In this document: positions 1 to 58,376 of the stretch, one piece after another
Numbering within the stretch: the stretch's first letter is position 1
Layout of the letters: the number at the start of each line of letters is the position of its first letter
Virus record (IMG/VR): IMGVR_UViG_3300044633_000521
Origin: a virus
Reading direction: 5' to 3' (one strand)
DNA length: 64,000 nucleotides
Position numbers and translations under genes: made by a program
The notes under the pieces: generated by a model
The model's input: the letters and a program-made list of their open reading frames with translations, nothing else
What the model was told of the DNA's origin: nothing
Database searches by the model: none

Positions 1-3000
1 AATGCTGACGAATTGTACGAAGCAAACTATCGAGTTTTAACAGCTAATTCAATCATTTCAGTTAACGGCGACGCAGTCGGGACAGGCACATATACTAATG
101 TTTATGTAGCACTGAGCAGTACTGGCGTATTGGCAGGAACCTACGGGTCAAACACAAATATAGCTCAATTAGCAGTTGACTCTGCCGGTAGAATAACTTC
201 GGCTAATAATTTAACTCTTGAGCAAGTTGGAAATCTAAGTGTAGTTGGTACCACAATCACGCCACTCAGCGGAGATTTAAATATTGGTAGTAATGTTAAC
301 AGTATAGCAGTTACTAATTCAATAACATCTAATATTATTATCGCAAATCAAATTTCTGCGTCAAGTATAGATGTATTAGGTGCTGAAATATTAACTAGTA
401 ACAGCAACATTATTGTTAACGGCGATGTTGTTGGGTATGGCGCAAACAGTAATGTTTATGTTGGGTTAACGACCACTGGTGTGACAGCAGGCACCTACGG
501 TAGCAGTGGCACTATTCCGCAAATTGTTGTTGACGACAAAGGACGGGTAACCTACGCAGCTAACTTGGCTATCTCTAGCACCATCGGTAACTTAACAGTG
601 TCTAATACAACTATATCGTCAGGAACGGGCATGACGTTTACTGCCTCTAACGGAAACATTGTACTTGATGCACAAGGAACAGGCGTAGTACAGATTATAG
701 GTTCCGACGCTATCGGTATTCCAGCAGGTGATACTGCTAGCCGCCCAGGGTATCCTGAAATAGGTTATACACGCTTTAATACAGAAGCAGGTAGTATCGA
801 ATACTGGGACGGAACTGATTGGGCTGTACCTGGATTTTCAACAGTAACCAGCGAAACTATAAATCCAGACGGTAGTGCTAACACATTTGTCCTAAGTTCA
901 AATACAACCACTTACGGCGTATTCGTTAGCATTAACGGTACAGTACAACAACCAGTAACCGCATATAACGTCCACGACGATAACCAAATAACATTTACTG
1001 AAGTACCGCACGACACAGACGTAATTGAAGTTCGCCACTTTGCAGCAGGTGTAACTGTTACTGCTCTACAATACGGTAATACTAAAGTACAAGCTACTGC
1101 TACTGATGTTGAAATAACAGGAAATTTAGTTCCAGTAGCTAATGTTACCTACGATCTAGGTAGCCCAACTCATTGGTGGAAGGATTTGTACTTAAGTGGT
1201 AATTCTATCTATCTCGGTGGGATGGCAATTACAAATAATAATGGAGTATTAACATCTACAGTCAACGGTAACTTAACAGTGCTACAATCAGCTGACCCGA
1301 CATTGGCACAGGATGTTGTTACACTAAATTATTTACAAACACAATTAAGTGGGATTGATACTACTGTTATTCAAGCAGATGATTCTAGCATACAAATTAT
1401 AGACAGCGGTACTAGTGCTGGTAATATTGTTATTGCGGTTGATGGATCAAATATTGCTACAATTGGTGCTAACGCAGTATCTATTACACGCACTGTTGAA
1501 GTTAACGGAAACATATCAGCAAACAACTTTAACTATGCTAACGGTGTGAGTATATTAGATGCGGTGTACAGCAACGCCGCAGTTCAGTCAGGTGCTATCG
1601 CCAGCGCAACAACAGCCATCACCACAGCTAATACTGCTATGAAAGGCTATGTTGACGGACAACTGTCGACAGCTAATACCGCAATGAAAGGATATGTTGA
1701 TGGTCAAGTATCAACATTAACATCAAATGCCGCAGCACAGGCCGGTACACTAGCAACTATACAAAGTACCTATGCGCAATTGGCAGGAGCAACATTCACA
1801 GGTGCTGTAGTTGCACCAAACATAACGCTGACGGCGGCATTAGCAATAACGTCGGGCGGTACAGGAGCAACGAGCTCAAGTGAAGCGTTAAACAATCTAT
1901 TTCCAAGCGGTGAAACCAGTGGATATGTATTAAAAACATCTGGACCGGGTAGTTATTATTGGGCTGCTGAATCAGGTGCTAGTAGCACGGTAGGTACTAC
2001 AATTAGTACTAGCCGTACTTATAAAACAGCTACAGCAGGACAAACAGTATTTACAGGATTAGGCACCTATACACCCGGGGCAGGACAATTACGCATATAT
2101 ATCAACGGTGTTAGACAGTTTGACAGTGCTTATACAGAAACTAACAGCTCGGCTGTTACATTATCGACTGGGGTAAGTTCTGGTACAGTATTATTGGCTG
2201 AAGTCGATGCCTATACTGACTTTACATCATATGCCAGTGATGTAGTGTTTAGTAATGTTGGCGGAATATCGGCTACTAATGTACAAGATGCCTTAGCAGA
2301 ATTAGATACTGAAAAAGCTGCACTTACAGGAGCATCATTTACGGGCAATGTAACTACTACTGGCAATGTATCTATAACTAGCACGTTGCGTAGTAGTTCA
2401 AGTTCAACGGGCGCACTAGTAGTAACTGGTGGTGTAGGCATAGGCGGTAACTTATACATTGGCGGAAACTTACAGGTTGCAGGTAATGTAACATATTTTG
2501 ACAGTAACAACGTTACATTCAACGATGCTATGATTTACCTAGCCGATGATAACACCGGTGATGTATTAGATATTGGGTTTATTAGTTCGTTTACTAATCC
2601 TAGTTATCAACATACTGGATTTGTTCGTGATGCTACAGATGGCGTTTGGAAACTATTTGCTAATGTAGTAGGAGAACCTACTACAACAGTTGACTTTACT
2701 AATGCTAACTACAGTAACTTACGTATCGGTAACCTAACATCAGTTGGTGGAACATTTACAGGTAATGTAAGTGCAGGTAACCTAAGTGCTACTAATTTAA
2801 CTGGAACACTAACAACTGCAGCACAGACTAACATTACCAGTGTTGGCACATTAACTGGTTTAACAGTAAGTGGTGCTCCTGTACCTAATGCCAACGTAAG
2901 CGTAAACTTAGGTAGCACATCAGCTTGGTGGAGTACATTCTATGCTAATACCTACGTTGGTAGAACAGCAACCTTTACAGGTAATATCACAGCCGGCAAT

Positions 3001-3612
3001 GTGAGTGCTACAAATTTAGCTGGAGCAATTACTTCTAGTCAAGTTACTACTGCACTAGGATTTACACCATATAATGCAACTAATCCAAGTGGATACTTAT
3101 CAACAGCAGTGACCAGTGCAGTGGCTGGCACAGGAGTTAGTGTAAGTGCAGGCACAGGAGCAGTTACGTTTAGTATTGGACAAGCAGTAGCTACATCGTC
3201 TAGTGTACAGTTCGGCAGTTTAGGAGTAGGTACAGCCGCAAGTGGAACCACTGGTGAAATACGTGCTACAAACAACATTACTGCTTACTACAGTTCAGAC
3301 TCACGCTTAAAAGAAAATGTGCGTGACATACCCGACGCACTAGATAAAGTTACTGCCATTGGTGGTAAACTATTTGATTGGACTGATGAATACATTGCCG
3401 ATCACGGTGGCCTAGATGACTATTTTATGCGTAAAGCAGACTTTGGTGTTATAGCACAAGATGTTGCGCAGGTATTACCTGAAGCAGTGCGCACCCGTGA
3501 TGATGGCTATCTAGCAGTTGACTATGAAAAAATGTGCGCCCTAGCGTTTGCGGCTATTAAAGAACTACAACAACAGGTCCAATTGCTAGAGCAACAAATA
3601 AAGGGCAAGTAA
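1..3612 (+). CDS. Tail fibre protein with C-terminal intramolecular chaperone (peptidase S74-type); 5' truncated by the window edge
   Basis: Frame is open from base 1. T/S/G/N-rich modules. C-terminus SSDSRLKENVRDI...FGVIAQDV...VDYEKMCALAFAAIKEL is a typical auto-cleaved chaperone domain. Confidence 0.85.
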   Translation, partial: NADELYEANYRVLTANSIISVNGDAVGTGTYTNVYVALSSTGVLAGTYGSNTNIAQLAVDSAGRITSANNLTLEQVGNLSVVGTTITPLSGDLNIGSNVNSIAVTNSITSNIIIANQISASSIDVLGAEILTSNSNIIVNGDVVGYGANSNVYVGLTTTGVTAGTYGSSGTIPQIVVDDKGRVTYAANLAISSTIGNLTVSNTTISSGTGMTFTASNGNIVLDAQGTGVVQIIGSDAIGIPAGDTASRPGYPEIGYTRFNTEAGSIEYWDGTDWAVPGFSTVTSETINPDGSANTFVLSSNTTTYGVFVSINGTVQQPVTAYNVHDDNQITFTEVPHDTDVIEVRHFAAGVTVTALQYGNTKVQATATDVEITGNLVPVANVTYDLGSPTHWWKDLYLSGNSIYLGGMAITNNNGVLTSTVNGNLTVLQSADPTLAQDVVTLNYLQTQLSGIDTTVIQADDSSIQIIDSGTSAGNIVIAVDGSNIATIGANAVSITRTVEVNGNISANNFNYANGVSILDAVYSNAAVQSGAIASATTAITTANTAMKGYVDGQLSTANTAMKGYVDGQVSTLTSNAAAQAGTLATIQSTYAQLAGATFTGAVVAPNITLTAALAITSGGTGATSSSEALNNLFPSGETSGYVLKTSGPGSYYWAAESGASSTVGTTISTSRTYKTATAGQTVFTGLGTYTPGAGQLRIYINGVRQFDSAYTETNSSAVTLSTGVSSGTVLLAEVDAYTDFTSYASDVVFSNVGGISATNVQDALAELDTEKAALTGASFTGNVTTTGNVSITSTLRSSSSSTGALVVTGGVGIGGNLYIGGNLQVAGNVTYFDSNNVTFNDAMIYLADDNTGDVLDIGFISSFTNPSYQHTGFVRDATDGVWKLFANVVGEPTTTVDFTNANYSNLRIGNLTSVGGTFTGNVSAGNLSATNLTGTLTTAAQTNITSVGTLTGLTVSGAPVPNANVSVNLGSTSAWWSTFYANTYVGRTATFTGNITAGNVSATNLAGAITSSQVTTALGFTPYNATNPSGYLSTAVTSAVAGTGVSVSAGTGAVTFSIGQAVATSSSVQFGSLGVGTAASGTTGEIRATNNITAYYSSDSRLKENVRDIPDALDKVTAIGGKLFDWTDEYIADHGGLDDYFMRKADFGVIAQDVAQVLPEAVRTRDDGYLAVDYEKMCALAFAAIKELQQQVQLLEQQIKGK

Positions 3613-46645: not shown

Positions 46646-46674
46646 TTGACACTGATCAATAAAGGTGTTATAAT
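46646..46674 (+). promoter_or_regulatory. Sigma70-type promoter
   Basis: Perfect TTGACA-17 bp-TATAAT. Confidence 0.85.
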
Positions 46675-46705
46675 AGTTTTTTAAATGATAATTTAGGACA
46701 ATAAA

Positions 46706-46948
46706 ATGGCCGCAACAAAAAGTTCAGTAGAGGTTTATAATATCGACGATGCGCTAGCAGTATTTGATAATAATCAATTTAAGTTAATACTTGCGGCTGC
46801 TATACGTGCTCGTGAAATTGCTACTGCTCGTACTATAGCCGAACGTGCTGGCTCTAAAGTTAAATATGCTAATCGTGCCAATGTATCTGCAATTATTGAA
46901 TTTGCTGAAGGTAAGATTGGTAAAGAGTATCTAGACAAGGTACGATAA
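46706..46948 (+). CDS. rpoZ: RNA polymerase omega subunit homologue
   Basis: IDDALAVFDNNQFKLILAAAIRAREI...VSAIIEFAEGKI matches omega motifs (N.F.L.L.AA.RAR; A..E...G.I). Confidence 0.75.
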   Translation: MAATKSSVEVYNIDDALAVFDNNQFKLILAAAIRAREIATARTIAERAGSKVKYANRANVSAIIEFAEGKIGKEYLDKVR

Positions 46949-46954
46949 GAATTT

Positions 46955-47033
46955 GGGCCCGAAGCTTAAACCTGGTATAAGCACTCGGCTCATAACCGAA
47001 AGACAGTGAGTTCAAATCTCACCAGGCCCACCA
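46955..47033 (+). tRNA. tRNA with CAT anticodon (Ile2 or elongator Met)
   Basis: Cloverleaf; loop CTCATAA; T-arm GTGAG-TTCAAAT-CTCAC; CCA encoded. Confidence 0.85.
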
Positions 47034-47047
47034 AATAAAGGACAAGT

Positions 47048-47221
47048 ATGACAAACGAAGAATATGAACAAGCAATGAAAGAGTTTTTAGCCACCGGCGG
47101 AGAAATCAAACAAATCGCTCGCGGTGTACAAAGTGAAACAGCAACAACTAACTTCTGGGGCGCACCTAAAAAGAAACCAAAAGAAGTTGAAGTAATACCA
47201 GGGACAGATTTAGAAGTATAA
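47048..47221 (+). CDS. 57-aa SutA-like RNAP-binding peptide (not in the ORF track)
   Basis: AAAGGA Shine-Dalgarno; MTNEEYEQAMKEFLATGGEIKQIARGVQSE...; the AMxEFLxxGGxIxxI core resembles the Pseudomonas SutA domain as I recall it. Confidence 0.6.
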   Translation: MTNEEYEQAMKEFLATGGEIKQIARGVQSETATTNFWGAPKKKPKEVEVIPGTDLEV

Positions 47222-47251: not shown

Positions 47252-47280
47252 TTGACAGGCTAATAAATAGACTGTATAAT
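47252..47280 (+). promoter_or_regulatory. Sigma70-type promoter of the tRNA operon
   Basis: Perfect TTGACA-17 bp-TATAAT with an AT-rich UP region. Confidence 0.9.
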
Positions 47281-47455: not shown

Positions 47456-47494
47456 AGTTTATATATAATATAAGTTAATTTTAATTAAGAACCC
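47442..47494 (+). promoter_or_regulatory. Putative antiterminator stem
   Basis: GGGATCTTAATTAGAGT (47442-58) pairs with ATTTTAATTAAGAACCC (47478-94), overlapping the terminator 5' arm. Confidence 0.65.
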
Positions 47495-47525
47495 TAAGAT
47501 CGAAAGACTTAGGGTTTTTTGTTTT
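47490..47525 (+). terminator. Intrinsic terminator upstream of the tRNA operon
   Basis: AACCCTAAG-a-TC-GAAA-GA-CTTAGGGTT followed by TTTTGTTTT. Confidence 0.85.
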
Positions 47526-48726: not shown

Positions 48727-48987
48727 ATGACCGAAGAACAACAATTAGCCTGGGATATACTAAGCACGCCAAATAATGCGGACTTTAAGAATTATCGCAG
48801 ACAGCATCGTATGACATGGTTAACTAAAGATCGCAAGATATTGTTAATTAGAGACATGGAAACGGCACATATCATAAGTTGCGTCAATATGTTAGAAGCA
48901 TTGGGGCAAGAAGAAACCTTGGCCTATAATGGCCTAATAGATGAACTAAGAAAGCGAGGAGAGCACGATGATGAAACCGTGGATTGA
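48727..48987 (+). CDS. Hypothetical protein
   Basis: 86-aa ORF with W.TKD....I.DMET.HI motif. Confidence 0.65.
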   Translation: MTEEQQLAWDILSTPNNADFKNYRRQHRMTWLTKDRKILLIRDMETAHIISCVNMLEALGQEETLAYNGLIDELRKRGEHDDETVD

Positions 48988-49387
48988 AAATATCAGTCTT
49001 GATGATGTACGCAAGGGCTATCATTACGACCCAGGTTTCAACAGTATGCTAATACAGATCGTAGATCCTGGTGTAGAGTTTCCAAAGCCTAAATATGACT
49101 TTCGCCGAGTACATCAGTTCTACTTCTTAGATGTAGAAGAAAGCGACAGCGAAAAGTTTTACTATGCGGCAGCCATTACCAACGCTGATGCTAAGGGTAT
49201 TGCCGAAGCATTAAAAGAAGCATGGAACGAAAGTATGAATGTAGTGGTACACTGCCATATGGGGGTAGCACGTAGTGGTGCCGTGGCAGAAGTTGGGCAT
49301 ATGATTGGGTTTAGAGATACAGAAAAATATCGTATACCAAACCTTATGGTAAAACATAAGTTAATGTACTACTTGGATTTAGTGTAA
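48968..49387 (+). CDS. Protein-tyrosine / dual-specificity phosphatase-like protein
   Basis: VHCHMGVARSGA (HCx5R) and PN motif. Confidence 0.8.
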   Translation: MMKPWIENISLDDVRKGYHYDPGFNSMLIQIVDPGVEFPKPKYDFRRVHQFYFLDVEESDSEKFYYAAAITNADAKGIAEALKEAWNESMNVVVHCHMGVARSGAVAEVGHMIGFRDTEKYRIPNLMVKHKLMYYLDLV

Positions 49388-49412: not shown

Positions 49413-49883
49413 ATGAAAAAACTGAATTTCGACGAAGTGCGTGATTTTATTAACGCACAAACTCCAGAAACTAAAATATACATTGGCGGCGATAGTACAC
49501 GCTTTCGTAAGAACGGACAATGGCATGCCGAATATACTTTGGCTATTGTAGTTCATATTGATGGGAAACATGGTTGTAAGATATTTGGTGAAACATCAAC
49601 CGAAGTAGATTACGACCAAAAGCGCAATCGACCAAGTATGCGTCTAATGAACGAAGTATATAAAATTTCAGAATTATATTTGAAATTACACGAAGTATTA
49701 GAAGGGCGCGATGTTGCTGTTCACTTGGATATCAATCCAAACGAAGCGCACGGTTCGAGCTGTGTAGTAACACAGGCAATTGGTTACATTCGCGGTACTT
49801 GTAATGTTATCCCAATGGTTAAACCCAACGCCTGGGCCGCTAGTTATGCTGCAGACCGTTTACATCACGTATTAGCAGCATAA
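49413..49883 (+). CDS. RNase H-like YkuK (DUF458) family protein
   Basis: KIYIGGDS, RLMNEV, VHLDIN, KP.AWAASYAAD. Confidence 0.85.
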   Translation: MKKLNFDEVRDFINAQTPETKIYIGGDSTRFRKNGQWHAEYTLAIVVHIDGKHGCKIFGETSTEVDYDQKRNRPSMRLMNEVYKISELYLKLHEVLEGRDVAVHLDINPNEAHGSSCVVTQAIGYIRGTCNVIPMVKPNAWAASYAADRLHHVLAA

Positions 49884-50462: not shown

Positions 50463-51569
50463 ATGACTAAAGTCTATTGCGCAGCTCCGTGGAGAGGCTT
50501 ACATATTACAACCGAAGGTGATGTTAAACCTTGTTGTTCTGGAGCATACGGATTTGGTAATATCAATGAACAAAATATTAAAGAAATATTAAATTCATTG
50601 AGCTGGCAAGAATTGCGAGAGCAAATTGCCAGTAATGATATTCCTAATTATTGTATAGGCTGTAAACAGCAAGGTGATGTCACTACTAGCGAACGTAACT
50701 GGCATAACAATAATAGTTTGGATATAAATGACTTAGGTTCTAATTATCATGCTCCTGCTATATTAGATGTACGTTGGAGCAATGCTTGTAATTTGATGTG
50801 CGTGTACTGTAATCCAAACGATAGTAGTATGTGGGCCAAAAAGTTAAGTATCCCACTACAGACTAAACGCAAAGAATATTATACTAATGTCATTGATTAT
50901 ATAACTGCTCATCAACAAAATCTTAAAACTGTGGCATTAATTGGTGGTGAGCCTTTGTTAATTCCGCAATGCGCAGACCTGCTTGACAATATACCGGACA
51001 CAGTTGATATTCATGTAATTTCAAATTTAAGTTTAAACTTAGAAAACAATCCGGTATTTCAGCGCCTATCTACTAGAAAGAAAGTGCGCTGGAGTGTGAG
51101 TTTTGAAAATGTAGGAAAACAGTTTGAATTTGTGCGTAGAGGAGCAAGTTGGGAACAGTTGACTAAAAATTTAGATTTGCTATTGGGCTTAGAAAGAACG
51201 CAGGGCCATATTATAGACATACATGCTATTCTCAATATATTAAGCCTAAGTGCTTTTAAAGTATTGACTGATTTTGCCTTTGACAAACGTATTAAAATTG
51301 TATTTCAATTTTTAGATCAGCCTGCGGAATTGGATCTGCGTAAATTTCCTAAGCATATAGTTAATACTATTAAAACACAAGCAGAAAATGTATACAAAGA
51401 TATTCAAACTGAATGGGATGAGCATAATACAATTGTTCAATATTTTGCTGCTGACCAAATTGAAGTACCTGATCAAATAGATAATTTTTATAAATTTGTA
51501 AATGAGTGCAGCACTGAAGATTTAAAATTTAATCAACTGTGGCCCGAACTAGATCAATTACTCCGCTAG
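50463..51569 (+). CDS. Radical SAM protein with N-terminal twitch/SPASM-like domain
   Basis: YCAAPW...PCC...CIGC; CNLMCVYC; GGEP. Confidence 0.9.
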   Translation: MTKVYCAAPWRGLHITTEGDVKPCCSGAYGFGNINEQNIKEILNSLSWQELREQIASNDIPNYCIGCKQQGDVTTSERNWHNNNSLDINDLGSNYHAPAILDVRWSNACNLMCVYCNPNDSSMWAKKLSIPLQTKRKEYYTNVIDYITAHQQNLKTVALIGGEPLLIPQCADLLDNIPDTVDIHVISNLSLNLENNPVFQRLSTRKKVRWSVSFENVGKQFEFVRRGASWEQLTKNLDLLLGLERTQGHIIDIHAILNILSLSAFKVLTDFAFDKRIKIVFQFLDQPAELDLRKFPKHIVNTIKTQAENVYKDIQTEWDEHNTIVQYFAADQIEVPDQIDNFYKFVNECSTEDLKFNQLWPELDQLLR

Positions 51570-56185: not shown

Positions 56186-56264
56186 CTCTGTTAACGACTA
56201 CGATAAATACGTATACACTGATAGTATAACATTAGTGTTATCCATTAAAAGGAGAAGTAAAGTA

Positions 56265-57476
56265 ATGAAGAAATTATTATTAGCAACATTATTAGCTGGT
56301 ATGTACTCTACAGCAAACGCAGGTATTCAAGTTCCGGCAGGTGATTGGACATTAGACATTGGTGGCGTTGTTAACGCTTACTATACAAACACACGCGGCA
56401 CAGGTAGTGCAGTGGTTGGTGGTCTAGGTGGTCCTAATGCCAATGCTCAACGTAACGAATCAAACATTACAACAGGCTTGTTACCAAACGTATTATCAAT
56501 TTCTGGTAAATCACGTCAAAATGATTTAGACATTGGTTTTACAATCGCTATTAACCCAGGTGCTTCAACAACACAGGGTGGCGATCAAGGTGCTAATCAA
56601 GAAAATCGTCAAGCATTTTTAACTATCGGTGATAAATCATGGGGTAGTGTAAAACTAGGTAAAGACCTGGGTATTTTTGCTAGTGATGCTATCTTAAACG
56701 ATATGACATTGTTAGGTGTTGGTGCAGGTGCTGGCGCACTAGCTGGTAACACAACTACATTAGGTCGTATCGGTAGTGGCTTTATGTATGCTGACTGGAA
56801 ATCACAAGTTGCTTACACATCACCAAACTTTGACGGCTTCCAATTCACAGTAGGTGTAACACAGGCATGGAACGCTCAAACAGCTGATCTAAATGCCGTA
56901 ACTGCTGGCGTACAAGCTGCTTCAGCTACATCAACAGGACGCGGTGGTGCTCAACCAGCATTTGAAGGTAAAGTATCTTACTCATTAGAAGGTCCTATTG
57001 CTGCTAAAGTATGGTCAAGTGCTATTTCACAAAAAGTTGAAGGTGTAACTGGCTCTGCCGCAGATGACCGCGCTTATGCTTGGGACGTTGGTACTAATTT
57101 AGCTGCTGGTCCATATGGCTTAACTGCTTACTACTATGATGGTAAAGGTATTGGTCGTACTATTCAATTAGTAGACGGGTTTGATACTACAGGTCGTCGT
57201 CGTGATTCAAACGGTGGCTACGTTCAAGGTACATACACATTGCCTACAGCAACTAAACTTGGCGTAAGCTGGGGTCAAAGTAAACTAGGCCGTAACAGTG
57301 GTGAAACAGCTACCGCATTGGTTTCGAAAAACGAAATGTGGACTGTTGGTGCTTATCACCCACTCACAAAACACGTGAACTTAGTAGCTGAATACTCAGA
57401 CGTTAAATCAGAAGCACAAAACGGTGCTGAAGGTAAATCACGTTCAGTATCGGCAGGCGCTATCTTATTCTTCTAA
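56265..57476 (+). CDS. Outer-membrane porin
   Basis: Signal peptide MKKLLLATLLAGMYSTANA; RQAF...WGSVKLG and Y.SPNF.GF motifs; C-terminal Phe; strong Shine-Dalgarno. Confidence 0.9.
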   Translation: MKKLLLATLLAGMYSTANAGIQVPAGDWTLDIGGVVNAYYTNTRGTGSAVVGGLGGPNANAQRNESNITTGLLPNVLSISGKSRQNDLDIGFTIAINPGASTTQGGDQGANQENRQAFLTIGDKSWGSVKLGKDLGIFASDAILNDMTLLGVGAGAGALAGNTTTLGRIGSGFMYADWKSQVAYTSPNFDGFQFTVGVTQAWNAQTADLNAVTAGVQAASATSTGRGGAQPAFEGKVSYSLEGPIAAKVWSSAISQKVEGVTGSAADDRAYAWDVGTNLAAGPYGLTAYYYDGKGIGRTIQLVDGFDTTGRRRDSNGGYVQGTYTLPTATKLGVSWGQSKLGRNSGETATALVSKNEMWTVGAYHPLTKHVNLVAEYSDVKSEAQNGAEGKSRSVSAGAILFF

Positions 57477-57557: not shown

Positions 57558-58376
57558 ATGATAAAAATTAGTCTAGACACCAAAGTAAAAATGTTGCAAA
57601 CGTTTGCCTATGTTGGTTTTATTTACACCATGGCATATCAATTTAATTTAATATATCTGCTATTAAGTTTGGCATTTAGCTGGATATTATTCCTAATAGG
57701 CGCTAGCATGGGCCTACACAAATACAGTAGTCATAAAAGTTTTGAATGTAAACACCCTGCCTTTAAGGTGATTATGTTATTTTGTAGTTCTATCCTTAGC
57801 CTAGGTAGCAATATTAGTTGGGCCGCTACTCACCGTAAACATCATCAGTTCAGTGATAAACCAGAAGACCCACACAGTCCTAACACTCATGGCGGTGGAG
57901 TTTGGCGCAGTATTAAACTTTGGTTTTATTATTTCCCTACCTATCATATTAACCCAAGAACAGTTAAAGACTTGATGTCAGACTCTACACATAAATTTTT
58001 CCATCATCATTATTTTAAAATTGTGCTAGGGTATGTATTGCTGCTGTCTCTAATAGATATTAAGTTAGCCTGTTACCTTTACTTTGTTCCGGTAATTTAC
58101 GGATTTACTGCTATCAGTTATATCACAGTGCTAGCACACAATACTTGGTTGTCTCGGTTTGGCTATAAGAATTTTGATAGTCGAGATTTAAGTTTTAACA
58201 GTCGTGTGGCTAGTGTTTTTGTGCCAGGCGACGGCAATCATAATAATCATCATGCTAGACCAGGCGCCGCCCGCAATAAGTTCACAGATCAAGATTGGGA
58301 TTTGGGTTTTTGGCTAATCAAATTGATTGGGCGTGTGCCAAATAGAGTTCAGTACAACCAACACTTTCCTACTTAA
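57558..58376 (+). CDS. Membrane fatty acid (delta-9-type) desaturase
   Basis: His boxes HKYSSH, HRKHH, HNNHH; DPHSP; transmembrane segments. Confidence 0.9.
   Translation: MIKISLDTKVKMLQTFAYVGFIYTMAYQFNLIYLLLSLAFSWILFLIGASMGLHKYSSHKSFECKHPAFKVIMLFCSSILSLGSNISWAATHRKHHQFSDKPEDPHSPNTHGGGVWRSIKLWFYYFPTYHINPRTVKDLMSDSTHKFFHHHYFKIVLGYVLLLSLIDIKLACYLYFVPVIYGFTAISYITVLAHNTWLSRFGYKNFDSRDLSFNSRVASVFVPGDGNHNNHHARPGAARNKFTDQDWDLGFWLIKLIGRVPNRVQYNQHFPT

Follow-up and report, generated by a model that had tools for sequence, protein, structure and literature searches.

A jumbo-phage transcription unit encoding an omega homologue and a small protein related to the RNA polymerase-binding domain of SutA

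Introduction

Known means by which phages gain control of host RNA polymerase (RNAP) are sigma factors, anti-sigmas, ADP-ribosylation and small inhibitors, and most of the known small RNAP-binding phage proteins are inhibitors. Among bacterial factors, CarD has a conserved tryptophan and basic residues positioned so as to reach the promoter bubble at its upstream fork. The omega subunit of RNAP is dispensable in E. coli. Its established role is that of a beta′ chaperone (PMC7700224, PMC5811629), and in E. coli omega variants expressed from a plasmid are dominant over the chromosomal copy (PMC7700224). Residues 2-5 of E. coli omega, together with other omega residues, coordinate the phosphates of ppGpp at site 1, and E. 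coli without site 1 alone has a modest phenotype (PMC7676912). Pseudomonas aeruginosa SutA binds the beta protrusion, for which residues K60, R64, L67, M71, F74, L75, G78, G79, V81 and I84 are needed, as determined by mutagenesis (He et al., PMC9300723). SutA without its D/E-rich N-domain or its wedge loop (residues 54-57) does not activate; beyond residue 90, the chain of SutA comes close to sigma region 3.1 (PMC9300723).

Here we describe a phage locus that encodes an omega homologue and a protein related to the RNAP-binding domain (RBD) of SutA. The locus lies in a window of 64,000 nt, the whole stretch of DNA analysed, which comes from an IMG/VR virus record of 99.6 kb with a CheckV completeness of 29%. 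The source phage is an uncultured giant from a lake. Our literature search found no papers on omega subunits encoded by phages or on phage proteins with a SutA-RBD. The JGI pipeline already labels the omega homologues; what is new here is the partner with its SutA-RBD and tail, as well as the lack of SutA in the probable host.

Results

A transcription unit with two open reading frames and a tRNA

The initial annotation had described a perfect sigma70 promoter ahead of an rpoZ homologue, a CAT tRNA and a 57-aa open reading frame (ORF), and we found all four elements at 46646-47221. The promoter (46646..46674, + strand) consists of TTGACA, 17 nt and TATAAT, with TG before the -10, and is located 60 nt upstream of the ATG of a divergent omega (RpoZ) homologue of 80 aa (46706..46948, +; AGGA 7 nt before the ATG). 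A tRNA(CAT) gene between both ORFs (46955..47030, with encoded CCA to 47033, +; Rfam RF00005, 53.5 bits) precedes the ORF of the 57-aa SutA-RBD-type small protein (47048..47221, +; AAGGA 5 nt before the ATG). Shine-Dalgarno sites are good for both ORFs. The genes have a consensus sigma70 promoter in common and are located immediately ahead of the tRNA array, as had been proposed. A second perfect sigma70 promoter (47252..47280, +) begins 31 nt past the stop of the 57-aa ORF, and we saw no terminator in the sequence between the two, so read-through from the 46646 promoter into the next unit is probable. The 3′ limit of this read-through is probably the first downstream terminator-like hairpin (47490..47525, +; 9-bp stem, 9-nt loop, T run), which we read from the sequence and which is absent from the automated terminator scan, where the loop limit was 8 nt.

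The minimum free energy fold of the tRNA(CAT) (46955-47033) is a cloverleaf with a z of -3.2, and relatives have homologous CAT tRNAs at the same place with compensatory stem changes. ARAGORN did not detect this tRNA, perhaps because of the A at position 8. Besides this A, the molecule has a C6-A67 mismatch and C4-G69/C5-G68 pairs; these pairs are TilS determinants of tRNA-Ile2, so the tRNA may decode AUA rather than AUG. Further along the tRNA region, the window encodes a radical SAM/SPASM enzyme (50463-51569) and, between tRNA blocks, two ORFs (48968-49387 and 49413-49883), one of which is weakly dual-specificity phosphatase-like and one RNaseH-like (PF04308).

In comparisons with relatives, dN/dS was 0.05-0.25 for the omega ORF and 0.10-0.28 for the 57-aa ORF, with dS largely saturated. 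Values this low argue that both ORFs are real genes, and the sequence comparisons indicate that both are under purifying selection.

An omega homologue with an altered N-terminus

The first ORF is an open frame without an alternative start. The encoded protein matches PF01192 (RNA_pol_Rpb6; E 3e-4, 21.1 bits, curated cut-off 26) and TIGR00690 (15.8 bits, cut-off 23.6), and all 22 of the 22 hits that a profile of its clade obtained in the PDB at E up to 1 were omega. This clade profile scored Methylophilaceae omegas (n=5) at 32-35 bits versus 22.9 bits for the best PDB omega. The AF2 model (pLDDT 83.8) has four helices, and the top 50 Foldseek matches were all omega chains, with probability up to 1.00 and TM 0.5-0.65. 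The protein is 35% identical to one Methylophilaceae omega over 69 residues; in an alignment with three Methylophilaceae omegas, L29, R34, A62, G69, G72, E74 and L76 are invariant and N23 and F25 nearly so. The rpoZ assignment of the initial annotation thus stands, and we conclude that by clade profile, predicted fold and core motifs the phage protein is an omega homologue. Its relatives in metagenomes fall into 58 clusters, many of which already bear PF01192; PHROGs has no omega family, and tblastn of the omega against 50,697 cultured-phage records gave no hit.

The N-terminus begins MAATKSS and, as had been noted, is without MAR. Alignments place host M1-A2-R3-I4-T5 opposite phage V8-E9-V10-Y11-N12, after a 7-residue N-terminal extension, so that A2 and R3 of the host MAR correspond to E9 and V10; the Arg of the host ALREI is replaced by I64. 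In the host-omega register the phage protein therefore lacks the residues 2-5-type site-1 motif (MAR) of the proteobacterial subgroup. The lack is conserved in the clade, across which S7, E9, N12, I13 and D14 are invariant. The phage omegas of contigs L012, L013 and L015, which are more distant, start MARI in the canonical register, so the loss of MAR is clade-specific.

The core helices are conserved, and phage omega would occupy the omega site on beta′. The dominance of plasmid-borne omega variants in E. coli (PMC7700224) shows that an expressed variant is able to enter RNAP, and we infer that phage omega replaces the resident omega. With the ppGpp-phosphate residues replaced behind a 7-residue extension, RNAP carrying phage omega should bind ppGpp poorly at site 1, and we hypothesize from the sequence that the variant weakens this site. 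Alternatively, phage omega could be an extra omega that helps beta′ to stay folded and RNAP to remain stable while slow-growing cells undergo a long infection, its N-terminus having drifted without regulatory significance. The established chaperone role of omega (PMC7700224, PMC5811629) fits such a function, and a general function independent of ppGpp must exist since some phage omegas keep MAR. However, the extension and S7, E9 and N12 are invariant in a clade under strong purifying selection and hence are not the product of drift, and the host already has an omega, the level of which varies little with growth (PMC7676912). We regard an extra omega as quite unlikely, and prefer a variant that weakens site 1.

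A SutA-type docking segment with an invariant tail

The core of the 57-aa protein had been likened to the RNAP-binding segment of SutA. We detected a match to the Pfam SutA-RBD family PF20661 (E 7.5e-7), so this motif is a real profile match; its score is borderline in the protein scan (28.8 bits, cut-off 29.3) and was flagged as above the cut-off in the genome-frame scan (29.0/29.5 bits). Profile searches, named in advance as the means of refuting the initial annotation, therefore found both omega and the SutA-RBD. The protein also matches NCBIfam PFL_1563 (NF058628; E 1e-7, 31.5 bits, cut-off 60) and NCBIfam SutA (NF041490; E 0.0057, 17.5 bits, cut-off 145). PF20661 is present in 81 of 81 clusters of its homologues. 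The family profile has P. aeruginosa SutA as its top match in the PDB (E 3e-4); the single 57-aa sequence found nothing useful there, SutA being reached by the family profile only.

The protein consists of a SutA-type helix and strand (residues 3-27), a TTNFWGAPKKK tail and a short acidic end. Phage Y6, M10, F13, L14, G17, G18, I20 and I23 align with SutA L67, M71, F74, L75, G78, G79, V81 and I84. Eight of the ten SutA interface residues are thereby kept; of the other two, K60 lies before the phage start and R64 is replaced by Asn (N3). The phage protein starts at about SutA residue 62 and is therefore without the D/E-rich N-domain and the wedge loop. AF2 predicts one helix (residues 3-15) and leaves the remainder unstructured, and this lack of further structure is as expected of a segment that becomes ordered on its target.

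The most conserved stretch is not the helix but G-V-Q-S-E-T-x-T-T-N-F-W-G-x-P-K-K-K, which is invariant in 37 sequences. A wider family, of which 49 representatives were obtained out of 1.84 billion at an E of up to 1e-3, has F13, G17, G18, W37 and G38 nearly invariant, with a basic patch after W37-G38 and C-terminal ends that are often acidic; 34 of 39 wider-family members match the PFL_1563 profile. The nearest Atlas clusters of the 57-aa protein are all viral. A search of 185,579 species genomes found no bacterial genome with the tail motif, and the tail alone had no hit in the PDB. A link by circular permutation between the tail (APKKKA...) and SutA residues 44-57 was dropped, as it amounted to 1.7 bits only. 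PADLOC reported nothing for either protein.

Among cultured-phage records, tblastn of the 57-aa protein gave two weak Pseudomonas phage matches, one of which the family profile supports. In Pseudomonas phage vB_PeaS_FBPa47, the 213-aa protein FBPa47_0074 (2423-3064 of locus L045) has a SutA-RBD-like segment near its N-terminus (family profile E 1.2e-4, tblastn E 0.03), and its neighbours are exonuclease and SSB genes. PHROGs 12813, 15231 and 5249 are further weak matches. A metagenome protein of 1534 aa (P0177) combines a NACHT N-terminal-helical-domain (NNH5) with seven SutA-RBD-like repeats (PF20661 E 3.9e-14) and could be of the STAND type, with RNAP-binding motifs as its building blocks.

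Gene order in related viruses

We found an omega gene followed on the same strand by a SutA-RBD gene in 18 other viral contigs, 17 of which have one or two tRNAs between the two genes, the most frequent combination being CAT plus TCT. In L028, L029, L034 and L036-L041, omega is preceded at the same 60-nt distance by a perfect promoter, and a perfect promoter also precedes L032/33/35 and L016-L019. L002 and L005-L008 contain close relatives of the omega but lack a SutA-RBD gene within 3 kb of it, and in L022-L024 a SutA-RBD gene occurs without omega, behind a perfect promoter of its own. Since each gene also occurs alone, the pairing is frequent, not obligate.

Small ORFs accumulate in the tRNA regions of large phages, and the single-sequence scores of both proteins are sub-threshold; the two ORFs might on these grounds be unrelated passengers of the tRNA island, their resemblance to RNAP factors functionally meaningless. 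Against this, two independent RNAP-related profile matches stand side by side, their order is kept in the 18 other contigs, interface residues defined by mutation are conserved and the fold match to omega is exclusive. A passenger origin is accordingly very unlikely.

More distant omegas (34-47% identity) are encoded 2-11 nt from tRNA genes. In L010, which represents another lineage, omega and a tRNA-Val are followed by an 81-aa DksA/TraR-type C4 zinc finger (3293-3538), which is a second case of omega paired with a small RNAP-binding protein. The complete relative G001 also encodes a DksA/TraR-type zinc finger, at 142852-142950, about 25 kb from the cassette. Another relative with the omega/SutA-RBD cassette, G003, encodes a RelA/SpoT-type HD_4 hydrolase domain (L136; 166375-166665).

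Use of host polymerase by a jumbo phage of probable Methylophilaceae

Large ORFs of the record correspond to a tail sheath, a sheath stabiliser, a baseplate wedge initiator and a large terminase (PHROGs names). A complete relative of 329,321 bp with direct terminal repeats bears both the omega and the SutA-RBD genes; together with the myovirus-type ORFs, this identifies the element as a jumbo myovirus of about 330 kb. Pfam searches for the catalytic domains of beta and beta′ and for Sigma70_r2 gave zero hits in the complete relative and four partial relatives, and we reject, on these five genomes, the possibility that omega is part of a phage multisubunit RNAP. The window contains six perfect TTGACA-N17-TATAAT sites versus a chance expectation of 0.09, four of them clustered at 46.6-49.9 kb. 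Given the lack of RNAP genes in the relatives and the six perfect sigma70 sites, we conclude that the phage is transcribed by host RNA polymerase.

A phage-encoded Gram-negative porin (56235-57476; PF13609, E 5.6e-20), notable in itself, shares 55-66% identity with the porins of Methylotenera, Methylophilus and further Methylophilaceae, and the best 80 genome loci of the porin search are nearly all Methylophilaceae, with a few metagenome-assembled genomes (MAGs) labelled more broadly or otherwise. This one porin gene and the omega similarity point to Methylophilaceae as the likely host family. Beyond the porin, the window encodes a fatty acid desaturase homologue (57558-58376).

Over its first 187 residues, Methylophilus beta gives a gap-free alignment with P. 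aeruginosa beta, its top match in the PDB, at about 70% identity by our own count; S59 is kept and E73 is replaced by Asp. The SutA docking surface thus plausibly exists in host beta. SutA itself is another matter: searches of Methylophilaceae genomes for the SutA-RBD (PF20661) were negative, first for all 5 and later for all 81 genomes, whereas all three Pseudomonadales-type genomes used as a positive control had it, in one to five copies each, at 55-58 bits. Two of the bacteria, Microbulbifer epialgicus (G090) and a Spongiibacteraceae MAG (G092), with five and four PF20661 matches, respectively, in open frames of 72-127 aa, appear to hold several SutA-RBD paralogues.

These counts bear on the notion that the 57-aa protein acts as a competitor of host SutA, blocking its docking site and thereby stopping SutA-dependent transcription of rRNA and ribosomal-protein genes. 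Its RBD-only architecture with interface residues kept is what recommends that notion. With no SutA-RBD in the 81 host-family genomes and a control that worked, however, the protein is not a decoy against host SutA; its nearest clusters, moreover, are all viral and its tail motif is in no bacterial genome of the 185,579 species. We reject the decoy, to which we assign hardly any probability.

Discussion

We propose that a small transcription unit with a consensus sigma70 promoter supplies a tRNA and two RNAP-docking proteins, which would dock on two different surfaces of host RNAP. Binding of both proteins to host RNAP is likely, and the phage would in this way probably re-tune the transcription enzyme of its host. 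In addition to the placement of phage omega on beta′, the SutA-type helix and strand of the 57-aa protein are predicted to occupy the hydrophobic groove of the beta protrusion. Without an acidic N-domain or wedge loop the 57-aa protein cannot act as SutA does, and the SutA-like promotion of transcription in the initial annotation is not transferable to what is a docking segment only (PMC9300723). As the SutA chain past residue 90 is near sigma region 3.1, the invariant Trp/Lys tail should start there. The Trp-Gly and Lys-Lys-Lys of the tail would then probably contact sigma, or else the promoter DNA close to the bubble's upstream edge, and this contact would stabilise initiation or open complexes at phage promoters. 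We infer such a role by analogy with the tryptophan wedge of CarD. Taken as a whole, with loss of ppGpp site 1 and the role of the tail included, this two-protein docking model is the reading towards which we lean.

Because SutA without its N-domain is inactive, the RBD alone may do nothing or may inhibit. Inhibition is the main rival for the 57-aa protein. Positioned on the beta protrusion and extending its basic tail in the direction of sigma region 3 and the promoter spacer, the protein would shut off or redirect host transcription (compare T7 Gp2 and Xp10 P7), omega acting separately. This would be the usual role of a small RNAP-binding phage protein. It would also suit a protein that keeps the RBD while the activating N-domain and wedge loop are missing (PMC9300723). 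Conservation of the tail is silent on the direction of the effect, but a phage that relies on host RNAP and strong sigma70 promoters would hit its own early genes with a general inhibitor, and we consider inhibition unlikely compared with docking that favours phage promoters.

The initial annotation had read the pair as a module that makes the RNAP of a starved host less sensitive to the stringent response. Of this interpretation, the profile matches, the loss of MAR and the promoter and tRNA context stand, whereas SutA-type activation does not and the loss of MAR is confined to this clade. Lower sensitivity to the stringent response would be a hypothesis, and in E. coli the loss of site 1 alone has a modest effect (PMC7676912). 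Its most far-reaching version would have the phage rebuild host RNAP at two sites, with omega removing ppGpp site 1 and a beta-protrusion binder of SutA lineage, equipped with a CarD-like wedge, working in hosts that lack SutA, such that the phage tRNA and early promoters are immune to the stringent response in starved freshwater methylotrophs; in that entirety we think it improbable.

If the proteins bind as predicted, the locus offers a natural omega variant that lacks the site-1 contacts and might serve as a tool for telling site 1 and site 2 apart in vivo. The groove of the beta protrusion would be a general docking site that is exploited outside the orders that bear SutA, and phage tRNA islands would be connected with stringent-response control in lake bacteria that grow slowly.

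Several known systems resemble parts of this cassette. DksA/TraR-type regulators of phages and plasmids are likewise small RNAP-binding regulators on mobile elements, but have another fold (C4 zinc finger) and another site (the secondary channel), and none is encoded in the window. CarD/CdnL is a likeness of working only: it is anchored at the beta protrusion (beta1 lobe), the site that we predict for the 57-aa protein, yet has no sequence or domain similarity to it. Phage omega and the proteobacterial omegas (PF01192, TIGR00690; Methylophilaceae, P. aeruginosa 7f0r_E and E. coli) share a length class, a helical fold and the core motifs N-(R/Q)-F-x-L-I-L-A-A-x-R-A-R-E and E-x-A-x-G-K-I-G. Unlike them, phage omega is phage-encoded within a tRNA array, has the 7-residue extension, has MAR and the ALREI Arg replaced, scores under the curated cut-offs and is without a disordered C-terminal tail. 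The PFL_1563 family (NF058628) and other short SutA-RBD proteins are small and have the RBD at the N-terminus, as does the phage protein. PFL_1563 is the best NCBIfam match of the latter, yet at 31.5 versus 60 bits the phage protein is a relative and not a member; we found no published function for this family. P. aeruginosa SutA (NF041490; PDB 7F0R/7XL3/7XL4; PMC9300723) shares the RBD with its helix, G-G and short strand, and at the interface M, F, L, G, G and I are identical, with L changed to Y and V to I. The phage protein differs from SutA in the absence of the 55-residue D/E-rich N-domain and the wedge loop, in a helix that is about 6 residues shorter, in its new TTNFWGAPKKK tail, and in being a viral protein in a host family without SutA.
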